DNA from: a virus
Lineage: Duplodnaviria > Heunggongvirae > Uroviricota > Caudoviricetes
Length of the DNA stretch: 8,399 nt
Reading direction: 5' to 3' (one strand)
IMG/VR virus record: IMGVR_UViG_2671180577_000022
Coordinates: 1-8,399 of that record
The notes beneath the pieces were generated by a model, which made no database searches, was not told the DNA's origin, and saw only the letters and a list, made by a program, of their open reading frames with translations. The translations under genes were made by a program, and so were the position numbers. This document shows positions 1 through 8,399 of this stretch, in pieces; position 1 is the first letter of the stretch, and every line of letters begins with the position of its first letter.

Positions 1-27
1 CATTCCAGCAACGGATCTGGAGGTAAT

Positions 28-1077
28 GTGCGGGTATTACTTCGACCTGTTCTGGTACCGGAACTCGGTCTGGTTATCGTTAAGCCAGGCCGTGAATCAA
101 TGTCAGCATTCCATAACGGCAGAATACTGGTGGAGCCGGAACCAAAAAGCATGCGAGCTCTGCCGTCCGGGGTTGTACCTGCCGTTCACCAGCCGCTGGC
201 GGAAGATAAATCACTACTGCCATTTTTCAGCGATGAGCGGGTGATCCGTGCTGCGGGTGGCGCTGGTGCACTGTCTGACTGGTTATTACGTCACGTGAAA
301 TCCTGCCAGTGGCTACACGGTGATTATCATCACAGCGAAACCGTCATTCACCGTTACGGTACCGGCGCGATGGTGTTGTGCTGGCACTGCGACAACCAGC
401 TGCGGGAGCAGACATCTGATTCACTGGATCAACTTGCTCAACAGAATCTGGCCGCCTGGATGATTGACATCATCCGTCACGCAATGAATGGCGCACAGGA
501 GCGTGAATTATCTCTGGCTGAATTATCCTGGTGGGCGGTCCGCAATCAGGTGGCGGACGCGCTACCGGAAGCGGTATTACGTCTTTCGCTGGGGTTGCGT
601 GCGGAAAAAATCCGCTCCGTATACCGTGAAAGCGACATCATACCGGGAGAACAGACCGCCACCAGCATACTGAAGCAGCGCACAAAAAATATTGCGCTAC
701 CGTCTCACACCCACCAGCAACAGAACCCACCACAGGAAAAGACGGTGGTCAGCATTGCCGTTGATCCGGAGTCTCCGGAATCCTTCATGAAACGACCTAA
801 ACGTCGCCTCTGGGTAAATGAGAAATACACACGCTGGGTAAAGACACAGCCGTGTGCGTGTTGTGGTAAGCCAGCGGACGATCCTCATCATCTGATTGGT
901 CATGGTCAGGGCGGAATGGGAACAAAATCCCACGATATTTTCACGCTACCGCTGTGTCGGGAGCATCACAACGAGCTTCATGCGGATCCGCTGGCGTTCG
1001 AAGAAAAGCATGGTTCCCAGGTTGATTTAATTTTTCGTTTTCTTGATCACGCTTTTGCAACCGGCGTGCTCGGGTAA
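28..1077 (+). CDS. DUF968/YdfU-like prophage protein (349 aa) with Cys/His-rich C-terminus
   Basis: Long ORF starting at GTG 28 with GGAGG at 20-24; frame is open to the window start so the true start could lie upstream or at ATG 100. Length matches the 349-aa Qin prophage YdfU as I recall it. C-terminus shows PCACCGKP ... DDPHHLIGHG ... LCREHHNELH, an HNH/zinc-finger-like cluster. Stop TAA 1075-1077 lies 12 nt before rusA. Confidence 0.75.
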   Translation: MRVLLRPVLVPELGLVIVKPGRESMSAFHNGRILVEPEPKSMRALPSGVVPAVHQPLAEDKSLLPFFSDERVIRAAGGAGALSDWLLRHVKSCQWLHGDYHHSETVIHRYGTGAMVLCWHCDNQLREQTSDSLDQLAQQNLAAWMIDIIRHAMNGAQERELSLAELSWWAVRNQVADALPEAVLRLSLGLRAEKIRSVYRESDIIPGEQTATSILKQRTKNIALPSHTHQQQNPPQEKTVVSIAVDPESPESFMKRPKRRLWVNEKYTRWVKTQPCACCGKPADDPHHLIGHGQGGMGTKSHDIFTLPLCREHHNELHADPLAFEEKHGSQVDLIFRFLDHAFATGVLG

Positions 1078-1089
1078 AAGAGGTTACTG

Positions 1090-1461
1090 ATGCGTATAGA
1101 GTTTGTTTTGCCTTACCCGCCGACGGTGAACACCTACTGGCGACGTCGTGGCAGCACATATTTTGTATCAAAAGCCGGTGAGCGTTATCGCCGGGCTGTG
1201 GCGCTTATTGTTCGCCAGCAGCGGCTGAAATTAAGCCTGTCCGGACGGCTGGCAATAAAAATTATTGCAGAACCACCGGATAAGCGCCGCCGTGACCTGG
1301 ACAACATTCTGAAAGCACCGCTGGATGCGCTGACGCATGCGGAAGTGCTCATTGATGACGAGCAGTTTGATGAAATCAATATTGTGCGCGGTCAGCCTGT
1401 GCCAGGTGGACGGCTGGGCGTGAAGATTTACGAAATCAGAGGTGGTAACGATGGCGCGTGA
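1090..1461 (+). CDS. rusA: RusA-family Holliday junction resolvase
   Basis: 123-aa ORF with AAGAGG 7 nt upstream of ATG 1090. Protein carries the RusA-type acidic catalytic core ([20 protein letters not shown]) and is the size of RusA (~120 aa). It sits immediately upstream of Q as in DLP12 and phage 82. Confidence 0.9.
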
Positions 1462-1822
1462 TATCCAGATGGTTCTTGAGCGATGGGGGGCATGGGCAGC
1501 AAATAATCATGAAGATGTAACATGGCCCTCGATAGCTGCTGGTTTTAAAGGATTAATCCCGACTAAAGTGAAATCACGTCCTCAGTGTTCTGATGATGAC
1601 GCCATGATAATTTGTGGTTGTATGGCACGATTAAACAAGAATAATCAGTATTTGCACGATTTGTTGGTGGATTATTACGTAGGTGGAATGACATTTATGG
1701 CTCTTGCACGTAAGCATAGATGTTCTGATGGGCTTATTGGTAAAAGGCTTTATAAAGCGGAAGGTATTATTGAAGGAATGCTTATGGCTCTGAATGTCCG
1801 GTTAGATATGGATATGCGGTAG
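1451..1822 (+). CDS. Q: Late-gene antiterminator Q (phage 82 / QuuD type)
   Basis: ATG 1451 ([23 protein letters not shown]...) preceded by GAGGTGG and overlapping the rusA stop (ATGGCGCGTGA), consistent with translational coupling. The ORF track starts at GTG 1442 in the same frame. Protein resembles E. coli QuuD as I recall it ([21 protein letters not shown]...), ~125 aa. Confidence 0.85.
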
Positions 1823-1913
1823 GGATATATAGTGATGAGGGTTATGTTTTCCGTGTTTATAATTAACATGTTTATTTTTTGATGGTCATGTATTGTGGAA
1901 GGTAGATAAAATG

Positions 1914-1942
1914 TTGCCTGGTGAATTGAAAATATTGATAAT
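1914..1942 (+). promoter_or_regulatory. Candidate sigma70 promoter (possible pR'-like late promoter) upstream of the CPBP gene
   Basis: TTGCCT (1914-1919), 17-nt spacer, GATAAT (1937-1942), about 30 nt upstream of the CPBP start. A second candidate has a perfect -10 TATAAT at 1858-1863 with a weak -35. Position just downstream of Q matches where pR'/qut lie in lambdoid phages. Not verified. Confidence 0.35.
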
Positions 1943-1973
1943 CAATCTTCATCATTAAATAAAAGGAGTGCTT

Positions 1974-2792
1974 ATGTGGATTGTGTTAGTACTGTCACTG
2001 TCAACTCTCAGTTGGCATAAGGTAGTGGCTTTTTCATTGTTGACGGTGTCTGTTGTCCTGGCTGTGCTTAATGATATTATTGATTGGTCGGTGTTATTTT
2101 TTGTTGCTACAATCGTTTTTTTTATTATTTTGAAGTTCAACTGGAAATATAACGCCTGGGCTAAATCTATATATGAAGTTGGCATAGTTTTATCAGCCAT
2201 AGCATTATCTTTCCATCTATGGCCAGGGTTTCACAATCCTGTAGTGCTAAATTCTGTTACTGTTGGCCCTCAAAGTACTCCCTATACAATGTATTTTAAT
2301 TTTGATAAAGCGCTGGTGCCATTTTTGTTAGTCCTGTGTACATCTTCTTTGTTTAAAAAAGAAGTAAAATCAGAAGTGTCTTTGTGGAAGTGGGGGGCTC
2401 TGTCGCTCTCTGTTCCTCTTATCCTGTTTTTGGCTGTTTTTTTTGGTGGATTAAAGCCAGAGATTCATTTTCCTGAGTGGTTGCCAGAGTTTATATTGGC
2501 TAATTTGTTTTTTGTGTCTCTGGCAGAGGAATCATTATTTAGAGGGTATATTCAATCACGGCTATCAGAAGTAACGTCTCCATTGGTTGCATTAATTGTG
2601 GCGGCTTTGTTGTTTGGTTTTTATCACTATTCAGGTGGTGCTTTACTTGTATTATTTGCCACGTTATCTGGTGTTGTGTATGGATTGTCATGGATGTGGA
2701 GTGGGCGTTTGTGGGTTGCCACCCTTTTCCATTTTGGTTTGAATCTGTGTCACTTGTTATTCTTTACCTATCCATTTTTAAAACATAATTGA
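1974..2792 (+). CDS. CPBP-family (CAAX protease / Abi-type) intramembrane protease, polytopic membrane protein
   Basis: ATG 1974 with GGAG 5 nt upstream (ORF track starts at in-frame GTG 1968). Highly hydrophobic multi-TM sequence. All three CPBP/PF02517 signature motifs are present: EExxxR (AEESLFRGY), FxxxH (LFGFYHY) and HxxxN (FHFGLNLCH). Visibly AT-rich compared with flanking core genes. Confidence 0.8.
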   Translation: MWIVLVLSLSTLSWHKVVAFSLLTVSVVLAVLNDIIDWSVLFFVATIVFFIILKFNWKYNAWAKSIYEVGIVLSAIALSFHLWPGFHNPVVLNSVTVGPQSTPYTMYFNFDKALVPFLLVLCTSSLFKKEVKSEVSLWKWGALSLSVPLILFLAVFFGGLKPEIHFPEWLPEFILANLFFVSLAEESLFRGYIQSRLSEVTSPLVALIVAALLFGFYHYSGGALLVLFATLSGVVYGLSWMWSGRLWVATLFHFGLNLCHLLFFTYPFLKHN

Positions 2793-2933
2793 TTTTTTCT
2801 ATGGTTTTAAATTTATAAGACTGAAAAATAGCAGGACGTGACATTTGCATGAAAAATATGCACGGCAAAGCATTTACGTACGTAAAAAATCAGGTATGCT
2901 GTTAAGAGTGGTTATTTCGCCGCATAGCTTGAC

Positions 2934-2956
2934 CCCGCCTCTGAGCGGGTTTTTTG
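2934..2956 (+). terminator. Candidate Rho-independent terminator downstream of the CPBP gene
   Basis: Stem CCCGC (2934-2938) / GCGGG (2945-2949), 6-nt loop, followed by TTTTTT (2950-2955). Short GC stem, so moderate strength. Confidence 0.5.
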
Positions 2957-3078
2957 TGCCCGCAAAGTAGCGCAGTGCGTTAAATGTGCTGGTAGTTATT
3001 AATACAGGTCTTTCAGCTTGCTGGCTTTTTCGGCAAGAGTTATTGGTGTGTCACGTTAACCGGAAAGGGTAAAAAGAC

Positions 3079-3276
3079 ATGCTGAAACAGCAGGATATGA
3101 CAGAAACCGCCAGAGTTGTGTTTGATGAATTAAGCGTCACCGAACCGGCGACAGTCGGGGAGATTGCGCAGAATACTTACCTTTCACGCGAACGCTGCCA
3201 GTTAATACTGACCCAGCTTGTTATGGCGGGTCTGGCAGACTATCAGTGCGGTTGTTACAGACGCCTTCAGTCCTGA
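3079..3276 (+). CDS. Small winged-helix DNA-binding protein, PapI/FaeA-like (65 aa)
   Basis: ATG 3079 with GGAAAGGG upstream. Central segment TVGEIAQNTYLSRERCQLILTQLVMAGLA follows the PapI/FaeA-type pattern (T-x-EIA ... S ... L-x-x-L-x-x-AG). Stop overlaps an intrinsic terminator. Confidence 0.6.
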   Translation: MLKQQDMTETARVVFDELSVTEPATVGEIAQNTYLSRERCQLILTQLVMAGLADYQCGCYRRLQS

Positions 3277-3288
3277 AGGCTTTTTTAT
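3263..3288 (+). terminator. Candidate Rho-independent terminator after the small wHTH gene
   Basis: Stem GCCTTCA (3263-3269) / TGAAGGC (3274-3280), loop GTCC, followed by TTTTTTATTT. Confidence 0.55.
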
Positions 3289-3413
3289 TTGTGGTAAATG
3301 GGCGGCTGGTGGGTGTTAGCGGCACCTGTCAGTCCTTTGCTTATGTGTTGATGATAATTTACCTTTTGGGGCTATAATTGAACTAACCAATTGCTAATGA
3401 AAGTAAAATTATA

Positions 3414-4127
3414 ATGGTTGTTGTCTGTTCAGTTATCATGGTTTGCTCCCCAATTAATATTTTTCTTGAAAAGGATACGTTGTCACTTAAGCCCGGCTCA
3501 GTCGTTCTGGCCACCAAATGCATCAGGGCGCTTTTCCTTATGCATTATGGCAAAGTTAAAATTTTCGATATAAACCATTCCATAGTAAGTCAATATCTGG
3601 AAATTCAGCATAAGCTGACAAGAACTCATCTGACTGACGTTCCGCTTTATCTGTCACTGGAACCCAACAACCCTGCGTTGGCTGAGGCTTTAATTACCAG
3701 CCAGAGATTTTCCGGAGATACCACGGATATGTTTCTTATGATGGCATGCCTGTCGCTGTTTGAATCAGATGAACGGATATTATTATTTTTAAGTGGATGT
3801 TTATCCAGTATAAGTGCCAAAGTCAGGGCGATAATTCAGACAGATATATCAGCAAGCTGGACGCTTGGTGCGATTGCGTTACGCCTGCATATGAGTGAGA
3901 GTTTGTTAAAGATAAAACTGAAAAATGAAGGGCACATGTTCAGTCGCTTGTTGCTGGAAGAGCGGATGCGTGTTGCTGTGAATATGTTATGTTCCCGGCA
4001 TGGATATGGACAGGCTGTAGCAGAAAAATGCGGTTATTCAAGCTGGTCCTACTTTATTTCTGTATTTCACCGCTATTATGGCTTCCCGCCAGACAGATAT
4101 GTATCCAGGCAAGGGCTTGATTATTGA
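3414..4127 (+). CDS. AraC/XylS-family transcriptional regulator (prophage-encoded; start uncertain)
   Basis: C-terminal ~100 aa form a typical AraC-type double HTH (WTLGAIALRLHMSESLLKIKLKNEGHMFSRLLLEERMRVAVNMLCS ... CGYSSWSYFISVFHRYYGFPPDRY). No good SD precedes any candidate start (3414, 3438, 3540), so the N-terminus is uncertain. AT-rich, as is usual for H-NS-silenced AppY/YdeO/GadX-like regulators. Confidence 0.75.
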   Translation: MVVVCSVIMVCSPINIFLEKDTLSLKPGSVVLATKCIRALFLMHYGKVKIFDINHSIVSQYLEIQHKLTRTHLTDVPLYLSLEPNNPALAEALITSQRFSGDTTDMFLMMACLSLFESDERILLFLSGCLSSISAKVRAIIQTDISASWTLGAIALRLHMSESLLKIKLKNEGHMFSRLLLEERMRVAVNMLCSRHGYGQAVAEKCGYSSWSYFISVFHRYYGFPPDRYVSRQGLDY

Positions 4128-4155
4128 TTTTCATCTGATTATTATTTTTTGACCC

Positions 4156-4231
4156 GGCCCTTTAGCTCAGTGGTGAGAGCGAGCGACTCATAATCGCCAG
4201 GTCGCTGGTTCAAATCCAGCAAGGGCCACCA
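4156..4231 (+). tRNA. ileZ: tRNA-Ile2 (anticodon CAU, lysidine-type; formally also Met-like)
   Basis: Manual cloverleaf: acceptor GGCCCTT/AAGGGCC, D-stem GCTC/GAGC, anticodon loop CTCATAA, T-loop TTCAAAT, encoded CCA. Close to E. coli ileX as I recall it. One A-C mispair at 27-43. Confidence 0.85.
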
Positions 4232-4238
4232 TCACATA

Positions 4239-4315
4239 CCGCCATTAGCTCATCAGGAAAGAGCGCCAGCTTTCGAAGCTGGTTGCGCGGAGTTCGGGTC
4301 CCCGAAGGCGGTCCA
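4239..4315 (+). tRNA. argN: tRNA-Arg (anticodon UCG), non-canonical; possibly degenerate
   Basis: Manual fold: D-stem GCTC/GAGC, anticodon stem CCAGC/GCTGG with loop TTTCGAA (anticodon TCG), encoded CCA. Has an A-A mismatch at acceptor 6-67, an A-C mismatch in the T-stem, and T-loop TTCGGGT (G at the normally A58 position). Position between ileZ and argO matches the Stx-phage tRNA cluster. Confidence 0.5.
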
Positions 4316-4328
4316 TTATCTGTATCCT

Positions 4329-4405
4329 GCGTTGTTAGCTCAGCCGGACAGAGCAATTGCCTTCTAAGCAATCGGTCACTGGTTCGAATCCAGTACAACG
4401 CGCCA
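4329..4405 (+). tRNA. argO: tRNA-Arg (anticodon UCU), reads AGA/AGG rare codons
   Basis: Perfect cloverleaf: acceptor GCGTTGT/ACAACGC, D-stem GCTC/GAGC, anticodon stem ATTGC/GCAAT with loop CTTCTAA, T-arm ACTGG-TTCGAAT-CCAGT, encoded CCA. Confidence 0.85.
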
Positions 4406-4419
4406 CACTTATTTTCCCT

Positions 4420-4445
4420 GGCTCGCTTTTGTGGGCCTTTTTTTT
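4420..4445 (+). terminator. Candidate Rho-independent terminator following the tRNA cluster
   Basis: Stem GGCUCGC / GUGGGCC (7 bp including two G-U wobbles), loop TTTT, followed by a run of 8 T (4438-4445). Confidence 0.5.
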
Positions 4446-4499
4446 AAATGTCTCACAATTCAGGCGGTTGACTGTTGTCTGGTTTGCGGGGAGTTTGTT

Positions 4500-4676
4500 A
4501 AAAGAAACTGGCATGGTGAATCCCCCTGTGCGGAGGGGCAATCAGCGAGTAGGTATATGGGATAATCGCGGATTCAGGTGCTGGTACTGAATTCACCGGG
4601 AGGCACCCGGCACCATGCAATGGCACATAGCGCCACTCTCCAGCCCCTCTCCGGAGGGGCTGTTTATATTGATTTT
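4500..4676 (+). ncRNA. Candidate structured small RNA or multi-hairpin regulatory element ending in an intrinsic terminator
   Basis: Four consecutive stem-loops with no ORF: CCCCT/AGGGG (4522-4537); GGATTCAG/CTGAATTC (4570-4594); CCGGG/CCCGG (4596-4610); AGCCCCTC/GAGGGGCT (4642-4661) followed by a T-rich tail GTTTATATTGATTTT. The first and last hairpins share a CGGAGGGGC core. Confidence 0.3.
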
Positions 4677-4696
4677 GTCAGATGTGAGTAAACTCC

Positions 4697-5032
4697 TTAT
4701 GGACTTTGTTGTTTTAGCCCATAAGGACATATTTGCAGAGTGCAACGGTTATTAAAGCATTCATTCAATACGTTATCTGTATTTGTAGGGCATTCCTGGC
4801 TGTTTTTGATTAAATTCCAGAATGTTTTATTGAATGGTACTACGTTGTAAATGGTTACAGGTAGCACTTTGTTATTGAGCATGATGCCTGTGTGAGTCAG
4901 TGTAAATATACTTTCAGGAGGTAAGAAAGCATCCGATTGATACCAGATTATTAATTTTATTTTACTCCATATGACTGAAAAAGATATTCCGCATGATGGC
5001 TGGATAACTGTATCAATCACAATCCACTTCAT
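4697..5032 (-). CDS. Hypothetical orphan protein (111 aa), only minus-strand gene candidate in the window
   Basis: 111-codon ORF in very AT-rich DNA, where stop codons are frequent by chance. Minus-strand start context AAGGAAACTAAATG gives a plausible SD with ~5-nt spacing. No recognisable motif, signal peptide or lipobox. Confidence 0.4.
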
Positions 5033-5052
5033 TTAGTTTCCTTGTTTATGCC

Positions 5053-5080
5053 TTGCTGGTGATGTTCTGAAAAGTATAAA
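5053..5080 (+). promoter_or_regulatory. Candidate sigma70 promoter upstream of nanS-p
   Basis: TTGCTG (5053-5058), 16-nt spacer, TATAAA (5075-5080) in the AT-rich intergenic region; a divergent promoter for the minus-strand ORF may share this region. Unverified. Confidence 0.3.
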
Positions 5081-5277
5081 TGATATTTTTGATTGTAAAC
5101 CATAGAGCAGAATTATTTTTCTGATGTTGTTTATTGTTTATTTAAATGCAGGGTGGTTTATATCTCGTCTTGTAGTTTATCCATGCATATCTGCTTGATG
5201 ATGAGGTTTTTATTTAAGGTATGGTTTTGTGTTTTTTCTGTATTACATGTCAGGTATTTTAAAGAATCATTTTTCAG

Positions 5278-7146
5278 ATGGTGGAAAGAACCATGGCATT
5301 TAAACACTATGATGTTGTCAGGGCGGCGTCGCCGTCAGATCTTGCGGAAAAGCTGACACATAAACTGAAAGAGGGCTGGCAGCCGTTTGGTAGTCCGGTG
5401 GCCATAACCCCTTATACCCTGATGCAGGCGATTGCAGCAGAAGGTGATGTGGTGGTCAGTGGTGCAACTGAGCCGGATTGGTACTACGTCATCGTACTGG
5501 CCGGGCAGTCCAATGCCATGGCTTACGGTGAAGGGCTTCCGCTGCCGGATTCATACGATGCGCCCCATCCGCGCATTAAGCAACTGGCCCGTCGTAACAC
5601 AGTGACTCCCGGTGGTGAAGTATGCGTATTTAACGACATCATTCCTGCTGACCATTGTCTGCATGATGTTCAGGATATGAGTACGATTAACCATCCCCGG
5701 GCTGACCTGAGCAAAGGGCAGTACGGCTGTGTCGGACAGGGCTTACATATTGCCAAAAAACTGCTTCCGTATATCCCTAATAACGCGGGGATCCTGCTGG
5801 TACCATGCTGTCGTGGTGGTTCGGCATTCACCCAGGGCACGGAGGGGACATTCAGCGAGTCCACGGGGGCCAGTCAGGATTCGGCTCGCTGGGGAGTGGG
5901 TAAGCCGTTATATCAGGATCTGCTTTTCCGCACGAAGGCAGCATTGCAGAAAAACCCGAAAAACGTTTTGCTGGCGATATGCTGGATGCAGGGGGAATTC
6001 GATATGACGAATGCCAGTTACGCCCAGCAGCCAGCAGCATTTCTTGCAATGGTACAGCAGTTCCGTGCTGACCTTGCCGGGCTGGCGGCGCAGTGTCACG
6101 GTGGAAGTCCGGCATCAGTCCCCTGGATTTGTGGCGACACGACATACGCGTGGAAACAAGAACACGGTACGCAATATGAAGTGGTATATGGTGCATATAA
6201 AGGTAAAGAATCCCAGCAGATTTATTTTGTTCCCTTTATGACCGATGGTAGCGGAGTTAATACACCGACAAACAACCCGTCAGAAGATCCTGATATTGTC
6301 GGGTCTGGTTATTACGGTTCGGCATCCCGAACGAACAAAAACTGGGTATCATCAAATCGCCCGACGCATTTCAGCTCATGGGCGCGTCGTGGCATTATTC
6401 CCGATCGTATGGCAACTGCTATTCTGAACGTAGCCGGTCGCACCTTAGCCTTCATTAGTGGTAAGGCACCGGAAATCAAACCCTCGCCCGGCGGCGACAC
6501 GCCATCGGGGCCGTCTGAAGATGCATCCATACGCACAATCTCCCTGTTGCCGACAGCCGGAGACGCTGCTGCGCAGGGCTGGAGCATTAAGAATGGCGGA
6601 ATTCAGTTGTCGGGTGGTGTATTTAAGATCGCCAAGCAGAGCAATAAAACCTGGTCCCTGACGCGCCCGGTGGATGACGCAGTCTCCCTGCTGACACGGG
6701 GTGGCAGACTGAGCTGTAAGTTTCGACTGTCAGGCGCACTGACCAACAACCAGTTCGGTCTGGGAATTTATCTGTATACCGATGTAGCGTTACCTGACGT
6801 CGTGGCGATGACCGGGACTGGTAACCCGTTCCTGATGTCGTTCTTCACCCAGACCACAGACGGCAAACTGAATCTGATGCATCACAAGAAAGCCGGAAAC
6901 ACAAAGTTGGGCGAGTTCGGGAATTACAGTAACGACTGGCAGACGCTGGAGCTGGTGTTCACCGCCGGCAGTGCCACGGTTACTCCGAAACTGAATGGAG
7001 TGGCTGGCCCGGCATTCCAGGTCATAAAAGACAGTCTGACAGTGGGACTAAATGCACTGACGCTGACGGATATTACCAAAAATGCAACGTATGGCGTTGA
7101 GATAGAAAGTCTGGTGCTGGAGATAAATGCACCGGCATCATCATAA
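5278..7146 (+). CDS. nanS-p: Prophage sialate O-acetylesterase NanS-p (N-terminal DUF1737, SGNH/SASA esterase domain, C-terminal extension)
   Basis: 622-aa ORF; alternative start ATG 5293 (MAFKHYDVV...) has the better SD (GGAAAG). SGNH/SASA active-site block [16 protein letters not shown] is present. Location just upstream of the holin matches NanS-p genes of Stx and non-Stx lambdoid prophages. Confidence 0.9.
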
Positions 7147-7231
7147 AAAGTGAGCCAGCCAAATGGAAGGTATCGTTAAACTCACCGGTAGTGTCAGTGG
7201 GTCGTCTGAGACGCCTGCATGAGTTATCAGA

Positions 7232-7262
7232 GCCATCAGTACTTAACTGGTGGCTTTTTTAT
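7232..7262 (+). terminator. Candidate Rho-independent terminator between nanS-p and the holin gene
   Basis: Stem GCCAUCAG (7232-7239) / CUGGUGGC (7247-7254) with one G-U pair, loop TACTTAA, followed by TTTTTTATTG. Confidence 0.5.
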
Positions 7263-7295
7263 TGTTGTCAGCTTCCGGATAACGGGAGACGGGGT

Positions 7296-7511
7296 ATGTA
7301 CCAGATGGAAAAAATCACAACAGGTGTGTCATACACCACGTCAGCGGTGGGAACGGGCTACTGGTTCCTGCAGTTGCTGGACAGGGTTTCCCCGTCTCAG
7401 TGGGCGGCAATAGGCGTGCTGGGGAGTCTGCTGTTTGGGCTGCTGACATATCTGACTAACCTGTATTTCAAAATCAGAGAGGACCGTCGTAAGGCGGCAC
7501 GGGGAGAGTAA
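7296..7511 (+). CDS. S: Class II holin, S21/EssQ-like pinholin (71 aa) with dual-start motif
   Basis: ATG 7296 with GGGAG 7 nt upstream. Protein [71 protein letters not shown] is near-identical to phage 21 / Qin / 933W S as I recall them. Met1 and Met4 form the classic antiholin/holin dual start. The ORF-track start at 7191 is an upstream in-frame extension. Confidence 0.9.
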
Positions 7512-7515
7512 TTCA

Positions 7516-7866
7516 ATGACTCAAAACTATGAACTGATTGTGAAAGGGATCCGCAATTTTGAGAATAAAGTTACGGTAACTTTAGCGTTACGGGACAAAA
7601 AACGCTTTGACGGTGAAATTTTTGACCTGGACATCTCGCTGGACCGTGTTGAAGGTGCCGCGCTGGAGTTTTATGAGGCAGCAGCCAGAAGGAGCATCAG
7701 ACAGGTCTTCCTGGATGTTGCTGCCGGGTTATGTGAAGGGGATGAGCAGTCGCCGGAAAAGCGCCCCGTAATTTTAGAGGCGCAGAATGTGTGGATAACC
7801 TACAAAGGAAAGCTACCAGGAAGAATTACTGGTTCTCTGAAGACTCCTCCGGAATCACAACCTTAA
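7516..7866 (+). CDS. Hypothetical phage protein (116 aa) between holin and endolysin (YdfR-like position)
   Basis: ATG 7516 lies 4 nt after the holin stop with GGGGAGAG upstream; same strand and tightly packed within the lysis cassette. Qin-type cassettes carry a small gene (ydfR) in this slot; similarity not verified. Confidence 0.6.
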   Translation: MTQNYELIVKGIRNFENKVTVTLALRDKKRFDGEIFDLDISLDRVEGAALEFYEAAARRSIRQVFLDVAAGLCEGDEQSPEKRPVILEAQNVWITYKGKLPGRITGSLKTPPESQP

Positions 7867-7929
7867 GTCACTGACCAGAACAGATAAACCTGTCCGTGGG
7901 CAGAAACCGATAAATCCTGATAAATATCC

Positions 7930-8399
7930 ATGAACGCAAAAATCAGATACGGCCTGTCGGCTGCCGTTCTGGCACTGATTGCCGTCGGTGCGCCCGCGCC
8001 TGATATTCTCGACCAGTTTCTGGATGAAAAAGAGGGTAACCACACTACGGCATACCGCGATGGTTCCGGCATCTGGACCATCTGTCGGGGGGCCACGATG
8101 GTGGATGGAAAACCCGTTTTTCCCGGTATGAAACTGTCGAAGGAAAAATGCGACCAGGTCAACGCCATTGAGCGTGATAAGGCGCTGGCATGGGTGGAGA
8201 AAAACATCAAAGTGCCATTGAGCGAACCCCAGAAAGCGGGGATCGCGTCATTCTGTCCGTACAACATTGGTCCCGGTAAGTGTTTCCCGTCGACGTTTTA
8301 TAAACGAATTAATGCAGGTGATCGCAGGGGAGCGTGTGAGGCGATTCGCTGGTGGATTAAGGACGGTGGCAGAGACTGCCGTATTCGTTCAAACAACTG
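7930..8399 (+). CDS. R: SAR endolysin (phage lysozyme R, GH24 family), 3' end truncated by window
   Basis: ATG 7930; the ORF track omits it because no stop is reached. Translation MNAKIRYGLSAAVLALIAVGAPAPDILDQFLDEKEGNHTTAYRDGSGIWTICRGAT... has a Gly/Ala-rich N-terminal SAR segment followed by a T4-lysozyme-like catalytic region. Near-identical to 933W/Qin-type R as I recall it; the SAR type pairs with the pinholin. Confidence 0.9.
   Translation, partial: MNAKIRYGLSAAVLALIAVGAPAPDILDQFLDEKEGNHTTAYRDGSGIWTICRGATMVDGKPVFPGMKLSKEKCDQVNAIERDKALAWVEKNIKVPLSEPQKAGIASFCPYNIGPGKCFPSTFYKRINAGDRRGACEAIRWWIKDGGRDCRIRSNN

Follow-up and report, generated by a model that had tools for sequence, protein, structure and literature searches.

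An STnc100-family sRNA gene and a convergent iraL anti-adaptor gene between the tRNA block and nanS-p of a lambdoid prophage

IraL is an experimentally characterized anti-adaptor of RssB that stabilizes RpoS in log phase (PMC4045071); its gene, previously 'ycgW', was described in the potB prophage or island of CFT073 (Hryckowian 2014, mBio; PMC4045071). [quoted passage not shown] IraL levels are increased in a CFT073 fur mutant. The related K-12 protein, IraM, is the anti-adaptor of Mg2+ starvation, and its structure with RssB (8TWD) displays a PmrD-like fold (PMC10844676); the published identity between IraL and IraM is 58.9% by ClustalW (PMC4045071). In Stx phages, a moron site with convergent sRNA genes has been described 3' of stx2B; AsxR, antisense to stx2AB, lies 282 bp to the 3' side of this operon (PMC4104026, Tree et al. 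2014).

The window analyzed here is the whole 8,399-nt stretch covering positions 1 to 8,399 of IMG/VR record IMGVR_UViG_2671180577_000022, and it represents the part of a lambdoid prophage that holds the late-regulatory genes, written in the direction of late transcription. It encodes a DUF968 protein (28-1077), RusA (1090-1461), a Q-like antiterminator (phrog_79; 1442-1822), and a low-GC block (1968-4127) with a CPBP/Rce1-like membrane protease, a small winged-helix protein, and an AraC-family regulator. ARAGORN and Rfam tRNA matches then delineate a plus-strand three-tRNA block of the ileZ/argN/argO type (4156..4405)—tRNA(cat) at 4156-4231, tRNA-Arg(tcg) at 4239-4315, and tRNA-Arg(tct) at 4329-4405—which is 92.9% identical to ileZ-argN-argO of 933W. 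On the far side of the interval, nanS-p (5293..7146, plus strand) codes for a SASA-family sialate O-acetylesterase with DUF1737 and DUF6645 domains (Pfam), and the holin and lysis genes follow downstream. The interval under study, between the tRNAs and nanS-p, had been delimited as 4406-5277 in an earlier sequence-only reading. Its left border is sound, as the tRNAs end at 4405, but the right border has to be moved: both the RefSeq annotation of a 100%-identical locus and homology place the start of nanS-p at 5292/5293, whereas 5278 is a mechanical ORF start. Likewise, the statement that the plus strand has no ORF above 60 aa holds for frames wholly inside the interval, but two ORFs with alternative start codons straddle its edges, one of 77 aa with a TTG start on the left (4357..4590) and one of 67 aa with a GTG start on the right (5153..5356).

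The plus strand of the interval opens with a terminator-like hairpin at 4420-4437 followed by a T8 run (feature 4420..4445; terminator scan), which, by the 933W annotation and our alignment, is homologous to the 'possible rho-independent terminator upstream of the stx genes' of that phage. Beyond it lies a hairpin-rich segment that had already been noticed from the letters of the DNA, and this segment is a known sRNA gene of the STnc100 family (PasD-related; EcOnc27-type), located at 4482..4671 on the plus strand. The assignment comes from a full-length match to the Rfam covariance model RF02076, which spans model positions 1-206 of 206 and scores 132.4 bits (gathering score, 47; E = 9e-30), and the segment folds with a minimum free energy of -74.6 kcal/mol (z = -2.26 against shuffles). 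The terminator scan and the Rfam structure line define an intrinsic terminator at 4641..4677, with its stem at 4641-4662 and a U-rich tail; no consensus promoter for the sRNA was recovered. The STnc_100 qPCR primers of an earlier study have exact matches at 4512-4604, and STnc_100 RNA has been detected in STEC outer-membrane vesicles with those primer sites (PMC12370729). PasD prophage sRNAs, which are encoded upstream of the esterase gene, have been linked to STnc100 in a 2026 preprint. A 42-aa minus-strand ORF that RefSeq lists as a pseudogene lies inside STnc100 in antisense and is probably an annotation artifact.

On the opposite strand, the AT-rich 111-aa ORF with a plausible Shine-Dalgarno motif that the sequence-only reading had described is indeed present at 4697..5032, with an ATG start, a GC content of 0.348 (versus 0.472 for the whole window), and an AAGGA motif 7-11 nt 5' of the start codon. 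The protein, which had been left without any recognized motif, can be named: the ORF is iraL, and its product belongs to the IraM/IraL/RssC family of RssB anti-adaptors. It is identical to CFT073 IraL (WP_000871291.1) at 111 of 111 aa, where the membership threshold was at least 95%, and at the DNA level the two genes are 99.7% identical, with 1 synonymous difference in 336 nt; WP_000871291.1 is encoded at the equivalent position in the CFT073 potB prophage. The product scores 162 bits against NCBIfam NF007393 (IraM subfamily), above the family cut-off of 121, in an alignment of protein residues 1-110 with profile positions 1-113 of 114, and in a sequence comparison residues 1-78, a putative PmrD-like beta-barrel region, align with the solved IraM domain of PDB 8TWD (E = 9e-32). 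Its identity to K-12 IraM (b1160) is 62% at the amino acid level, and the comparison with iraM gives a dN/dS of 0.17 at a dS of ~1.5, so that the synonymous/nonsynonymous pattern by which the coding status of the ORF was to be judged is present. Variation among 92 iraL alleles (8 synonymous sites, 0 nonsynonymous) was discarded as evidence because it is circular, the loci having been chosen by protein identity.

The identification has to be weighed against the names that the protein carries elsewhere. RefSeq/PGAP calls its 100%-identical copies 'anti-adapter protein IraM', and this name, the common NCBIfam subfamily, and the identity to b1160 would all suit an ortholog of K-12 iraM, that is, a PhoP/PhoQ-dependent gene induced by Mg2+ starvation whose product contacts both RssB domains. 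We consider such orthology very unlikely, given that the product is identical to IraL and not to IraM and that DNA similarity to the K-12 locus is limited to the coding region (window 4713-5034, 70.9%), which also means that the promoter regions of iraL and K-12 iraM are unrelated. The contexts differ as well, with a lambdoid late region here versus the edge of e14 in K-12, where no STnc100 is found near iraM. The literature, for its part, describes two non-overlapping allele groups with different inducing conditions and RssB contacts, those of IraL involving the N-terminal domain only (PMC4045071), and CFT073 iraL has already been reported as constitutive in log phase and PhoP-independent. 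IraM proper, for which we asked for at least 95% identity, a shared promoter, and a locus beside e14, was rejected as a candidate at 62% aa and 70.9% nt identity. The name 'IraM' is right at the family level only: similarity to the K-12 locus ends at the ends of the coding region and the literature treats the two as distinct alleles under different regulation.

A precomputed Pfam table labels the protein PF11183 PmrD and, together with the PmrD-like fold of IraM (PMC10844676), would invite its interpretation as a connector of the PmrD type acting mainly on some other response regulator than RssB, e.g., PmrA. This is most improbable in view of the published direct IraL-RssB interaction and RpoS stabilization (PMC4045071); nothing points to a different target, and our local Pfam search returned no PmrD match for IraL or IraM. 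In that search, IraL matched nothing even at E <= 10, and neither did authentic K-12 IraM, so the missing match is a property of the library copy and not of the protein. A toxin or phage-resistance role had also been raised for the ORF. Lysogen-expressed morons typically share its position and antisense orientation, and the label 'unknown function' on phrog_4407, the PHROGs family of the iraL product, would leave room for a toxin, for abortive infection, or for an anti-phage moron that acts by superinfection exclusion. Nothing supports such a role, however: IraL has no match among the PADLOC defense models at E <= 0.01, the identical protein has a different demonstrated activity, and K-12 tolerates the native-promoter clone (PMC4045071), which makes this reading exceedingly unlikely. 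The PADLOC models also gave no meaningful match to the upstream CPBP, wHTH, and AraC-like proteins. As for a chance frame in an AT-rich spacer, with the hairpins as mere phage terminators, the small size and a GC of 0.33 are what one would expect of it, but the low dN/dS against iraM, the score above a curated family cut-off, the occurrence of the exact protein in 34,862 index blocks of an assembly collection, and the published genetics (PMC4045071) all speak against it, as does the full-length, high-scoring covariance-model match for the sRNA; we give it practically no weight, and these results already refute it.

The regulatory region of iraL can be aligned with the experimentally mapped one. 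[quoted passage not shown] Upstream of it, at 5073..5099 on the same strand, we assign putative promoter hexamers from the sequence: a -10 element TATACT at 5078->5073, 7 nt upstream of the TSS, and a -35-like TTTACA at 5099->5094, separated by a 15-nt spacer. The region from -100 to -1 shows 98% identity with CFT073 (regulatory-region threshold, at least 96%), and three substitutions distinguish the promoter and UTR from those of CFT073 iraL, located at -1, at +31, and at the base adjoining the TTTACA -35-like hexamer. Four alleles of the polymorphic -35 region occur among 92 loci (TTTACAATC, TTTACATTC, TTTA-ATTC, and TTTATATTC), and the allele of the window is the commonest (58/92). A '-35 point-mutation' iraL allele whose activity was not established has been noted in JJ1886 iraL2 (PMC4045071); the promoter allele of the window is probably active. 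The independent regulation and expression in the lysogen that the earlier reading had deduced from the antisense orientation are on record for the identical gene, on the basis of 5' RACE and promoter data (PMC4045071). At the other end of the gene, the terminator scan identified no canonical iraL terminator on the minus strand, and since the hairpin past the stop codon lacks a U-tract, the iraL transcript may overlap STnc100 in antisense at its 3' end.

The ORF had further been assigned to the place where Stx phages carry stxAB, in an interval said to be devoid of any stx remnant. The absence of a remnant was confirmed: tblastn searches of the window with Stx1A/B and Stx2A/B gave chance-level matches only (E >= 0.16) without any resemblance to Stx, and sensitive word-7 blastn with both stx cassettes retrieved nothing in the interval and no significant match elsewhere in the window. 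The equivalence of place was not, as pairwise alignments and Rfam scans of 933W and Shigella phage 75/02 indicate that the argO-nanS-p interval comprises two insertion sites parted by a conserved sRNA. Site A, the stx or first moron site, lies at 4446..4449 between the tRNA terminator and the sRNA and is empty here; site B lies between the STnc100 terminator and nanS-p and holds iraL in antisense here and AsxR/AgvB, also in antisense, in Stx phages. In 933W, the tRNA block with its terminator (3118-3412 of locus L007) aligns with window 4153-4446, and stxA2-stxB2 (~1.33 kb) is inserted between sequences homologous to window ~4446 and ~4449. STnc100 starts 75 nt past stxB2, AsxR is encoded on the opposite strand 2 nt past the end of STnc100, and nanS-p comes next; these 933W coordinates reproduce the published 282-bp distance of AsxR exactly. 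Shigella phage 75/02 has the order stx1AB, STnc100, AgvB (antisense), and esterase. STnc100 elsewhere in lambdoid late regions is found after stxB (933W, Stx1 phages) and upstream of nanS-p, a position shared here, although in the window it directly follows the tRNA terminator, without a toxin operon upstream. In CFT073, site A carries a ~640-bp DUF3927 insert between the equivalents of window 4417 and 4441. CFT073 also differs from the window in its left arm (Q-CPBP-wHTH-AraC-like in the window) and in a truncated nanS-p, which is intact here, while the two are alike in that STnc100 lies 25 nt from the iraL stop codon and nanS-p starts 260 nt upstream of the iraL ATG. With the stx site (~4446/4449) empty and iraL in the downstream site B, iraL is not a replacement of stxAB.

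AsxR and AgvB, known from EHEC prophages (PMC4104026), lie like iraL in site B on the antisense strand, converge with the plus-strand sRNA, and act as lysogen-expressed regulators of host physiology. They differ from the protein gene iraL in being RNAs, 51-60 nt long, which act as sponges of host sRNAs. The stxAB moron shares the argO-nanS-p neighborhood with iraL but is inserted upstream of the sRNA, in sense orientation, and depends on late transcription. Neither AsxR (RF02703) nor AgvB (RF02702) had an Rfam match at E <= 10 in 4400-5300, while the same method detected them in 933W and Shigella phage 75/02. AsxR, AgvB, and other Rfam families were also absent from the iraL cassette, from the 232-bp spacer of strain RM12761 described below, and from the vicinity of K-12 iraM.

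The limits of the iraL cassette emerge from comparison with E. coli O145:H28 RM12761, which lacks iraL but is 98.4% identical to the window over positions 1-4661. This shared left arm covers Q, CPBP, the AraC-like gene, the tRNAs, and the sRNA. Identity stops at 4661/4662, where the terminator stem of the sRNA has its 3' foot, and similarity restarts at 5292, at 84% identity only, with an unrelated 232-bp spacer in place of the iraL cassette. These two breakpoints define the cassette as 4662-5291 (630 bp, GC 0.327), and the window as a whole is a mosaic with a crossover in or at the sRNA.

With a coverage of >=80%, the interval occurs in 1,428 of 5,426 complete E. coli genomes, and the exact iraL protein was also found in 252 IMG/VR contigs and in the E. 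albertii type strain. Among 50,697 GenBank phage records, iraL occurs in 4, none of which is an Stx phage, and in the Stx phages of that collection only the sRNA part of the interval was matched. The arrangement itself is strongly conserved. In all 92 surveyed iraL loci an invariant 26 nt separates STnc100 from the iraL 3' end, and none of the 92 carries stx. nanS-p was found in 90 of them, and in 87 of these its 5' end is 260-261 nt away from the iraL ATG. Site A is the only variable part: its gap measures 75-79 nt (empty and window-like) in 16 loci, ~214 nt in 12 (most of them with another copy of the sRNA), and 682-699 nt, corresponding to the DUF3927 insert, in 46. The combination with the AraC-like regulator is rare, recovered in 6 of 5,426 genomes (best identity 97.3%) and in 0 of the 92 surveyed loci.

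Taking these lines together, it is very probable that the interval holds two known lysogenic-conversion regulators tail to tail, the STnc100 sRNA and iraL, the latter with its own promoter, and no toxin. Our own data contribute sequence identity, promoter/TSS correspondence, cassette boundaries, and the conserved convergent architecture, while RssB binding, RpoS stabilization, and promoter activity come from the literature on the identical protein. On the plus strand, the STnc100 gene with its own intrinsic terminator stands directly behind the tRNA terminator; on the minus strand, iraL would be transcribed convergently from its own sigma70-type promoter, with the TSS at 5065, and because of this promoter its expression in the lysogen would not depend on Q antitermination. 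By binding to the N-terminal receiver domain of RssB, IraL is then expected to keep this adaptor from delivering RpoS (sigma-S) to ClpXP, so that RpoS would be stabilized during exponential growth and the general stress regulon raised. After induction, we infer that Q-modified polymerase would pass the tRNA and sRNA terminators and collide head-on with iraL transcription, which would make iraL a lysogen-time function.

A more far-reaching proposal is that site B is a dedicated antisense-regulator moron site whose occupants, iraL or anti-sRNAs of the AsxR/AgvB type, are mutually exclusive, and that iraL and STnc100 are perhaps functionally coupled; we regard it as unlikely. Under such coupling, the iraL transcript, having no recognizable terminator, would read antisense through STnc100, and in the opposite direction read-through from the sRNA or from late transcription would enter iraL in antisense. 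The invariant spacing across the 92 loci is compatible with this, but the recent spread of one recombinant block explains it equally well. Pairing in trans between STnc100 and the 5'-terminal 81 nt of the iraL mRNA was considered and rejected, since the predicted duplex is less stable than the average for 500 dinucleotide shuffles. If true, coupling would tie RpoS stabilization to the transcriptional state of the prophage.

Both iraL and STnc100 are already known, and experiments have established the mechanism of iraL. What is mildly new is comparative only, namely the two-site layout, iraL and AsxR/AgvB as alternative occupants of site B, and the strict linkage of the sRNA to iraL. The RefSeq label 'IraM' and the PHROGs label 'unknown function' mask the fact that a widespread prophage gene is IraL, and the argO-nanS-p interval is better read as two moron sites flanking a conserved sRNA than as a single 'stx slot'. 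iraL has been reported as under-represented in STEC, and the alternative use of the antisense site, by iraL on the one hand and AsxR/AgvB on the other, may help explain this distribution.

By sequence similarity, the window is a recombinant, with breakpoints at positions 4661/4662 and 5292. Its left portion (1–4661) is 98.4% RM12761-like, RM12761 being an E. coli O145:H28 relative that lacks iraL, while positions 4441–5512 are 98.4% CFT073-like and positions 4138–5600 are 99% DLI.5a-like. The crossover point is likely the shared prophage sRNA STnc100 (Rfam RF02076). Among the complete E. coli genomes of the collection, none matches the window closely along its entire length; the highest-ranking one covers 93% of it, at 93% identity. 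At the right-hand junction, the longest open reading frame of the esterase gene nanS-p begins at 5278; RefSeq starts the gene at 5293, and similarity to its counterparts elsewhere sets in at 5292. The nanS-p ribosome-binding region is therefore supplied by the iraL cassette.

STnc100 itself wholly contains, in antisense orientation, a 42-aa ORF (4498–4626, minus strand). Older Stx1-phage records entered it as ORF b70, and RefSeq gives it pseudogene status under the label "hypothetical protein, missing C-terminus"; it is probably an annotation artefact. In some iraL prophages the sRNA is present in duplicate upstream of iraL, as two diverged copies in tandem (~73% identical); phage vB_EcoS-640R1 and the prophage of the E. 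albertii type strain are examples. This arrangement occurs in three compared loci, L006 (copies at 4562–4755 and 5031–5219 of that locus), L010 and L019, and in about 10 further ones.

Comparison of the iraL promoter across loci L008–L104 identified its -35-like region (window 5094–5099) as a hotspot of polymorphism. Four alleles occur there (TTTACAATC, TTTACATTC, TTTA-ATTC and TTTATATTC), alongside an invariant -10 hexamer and a nearly invariant transcription start region. This pattern suggests that iraL expression levels differ by promoter allele. The gene also turns up in other settings. One compared locus, L017 (CP055124.1, 2657051–2669386), is a decayed prophage remnant that keeps iraL and a DUF1737 stub and adjoins an IS element, a Lom-like gene and an IpaH-type (LRR-NEL) effector gene, suggesting that iraL has outlasted the decay of its prophage in this Shigella-like genome. 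Three PLSDB "plasmid" records from E. coli (CP088590.1, CP088669.1 and CP054248.1), all large (175–730 kb) and non-mobilizable, contain the cassette at 99.7–99.8% identity and may represent prophage-bearing or mis-assigned replicons.

Annotation of IraL is inconsistent across Pfam, PHROGs and RefSeq. A precomputed table assigns it to PF11183 (PmrD), and neither IraL nor K-12 IraM matched the local Pfam copy, even at E <= 10. PHROGs v4 places the family in phrog_4407 with the label "unknown function", and RefSeq names the protein IraM, not IraL.

Downstream, the nanS-p/holin intergenic region (7147–7295) includes a terminator-like hairpin at ~7231–7255 (GCCATCAG...CTGGTGGC), followed by a T-run (TTTTTTATT). 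It occupies the same position as the PasA and PasC sRNAs, which the Pas preprint located between esterase and holin genes; an Rfam scan of the whole window returned no match in this intergenic region.

Upstream, between Q and the tRNAs, lies a moron block with a low GC content of 0.40 (1823–4127), encoding a CPBP/Rce1-like intramembrane protease (1968–2792), a 65-aa winged-helix-like (wHTH) protein (3079–3276) and an AraC-family regulator (3414–4127). The nearest NCBIfam models to the latter are YdeO and GadX, each scoring below its cut-off. By family and position, this AraC-like protein may be likened to the Psr/PatE acid-resistance regulators of EHEC prophages. The prophage would touch the RpoS/GAD stress network via two regulators, the AraC-like protein and iraL.
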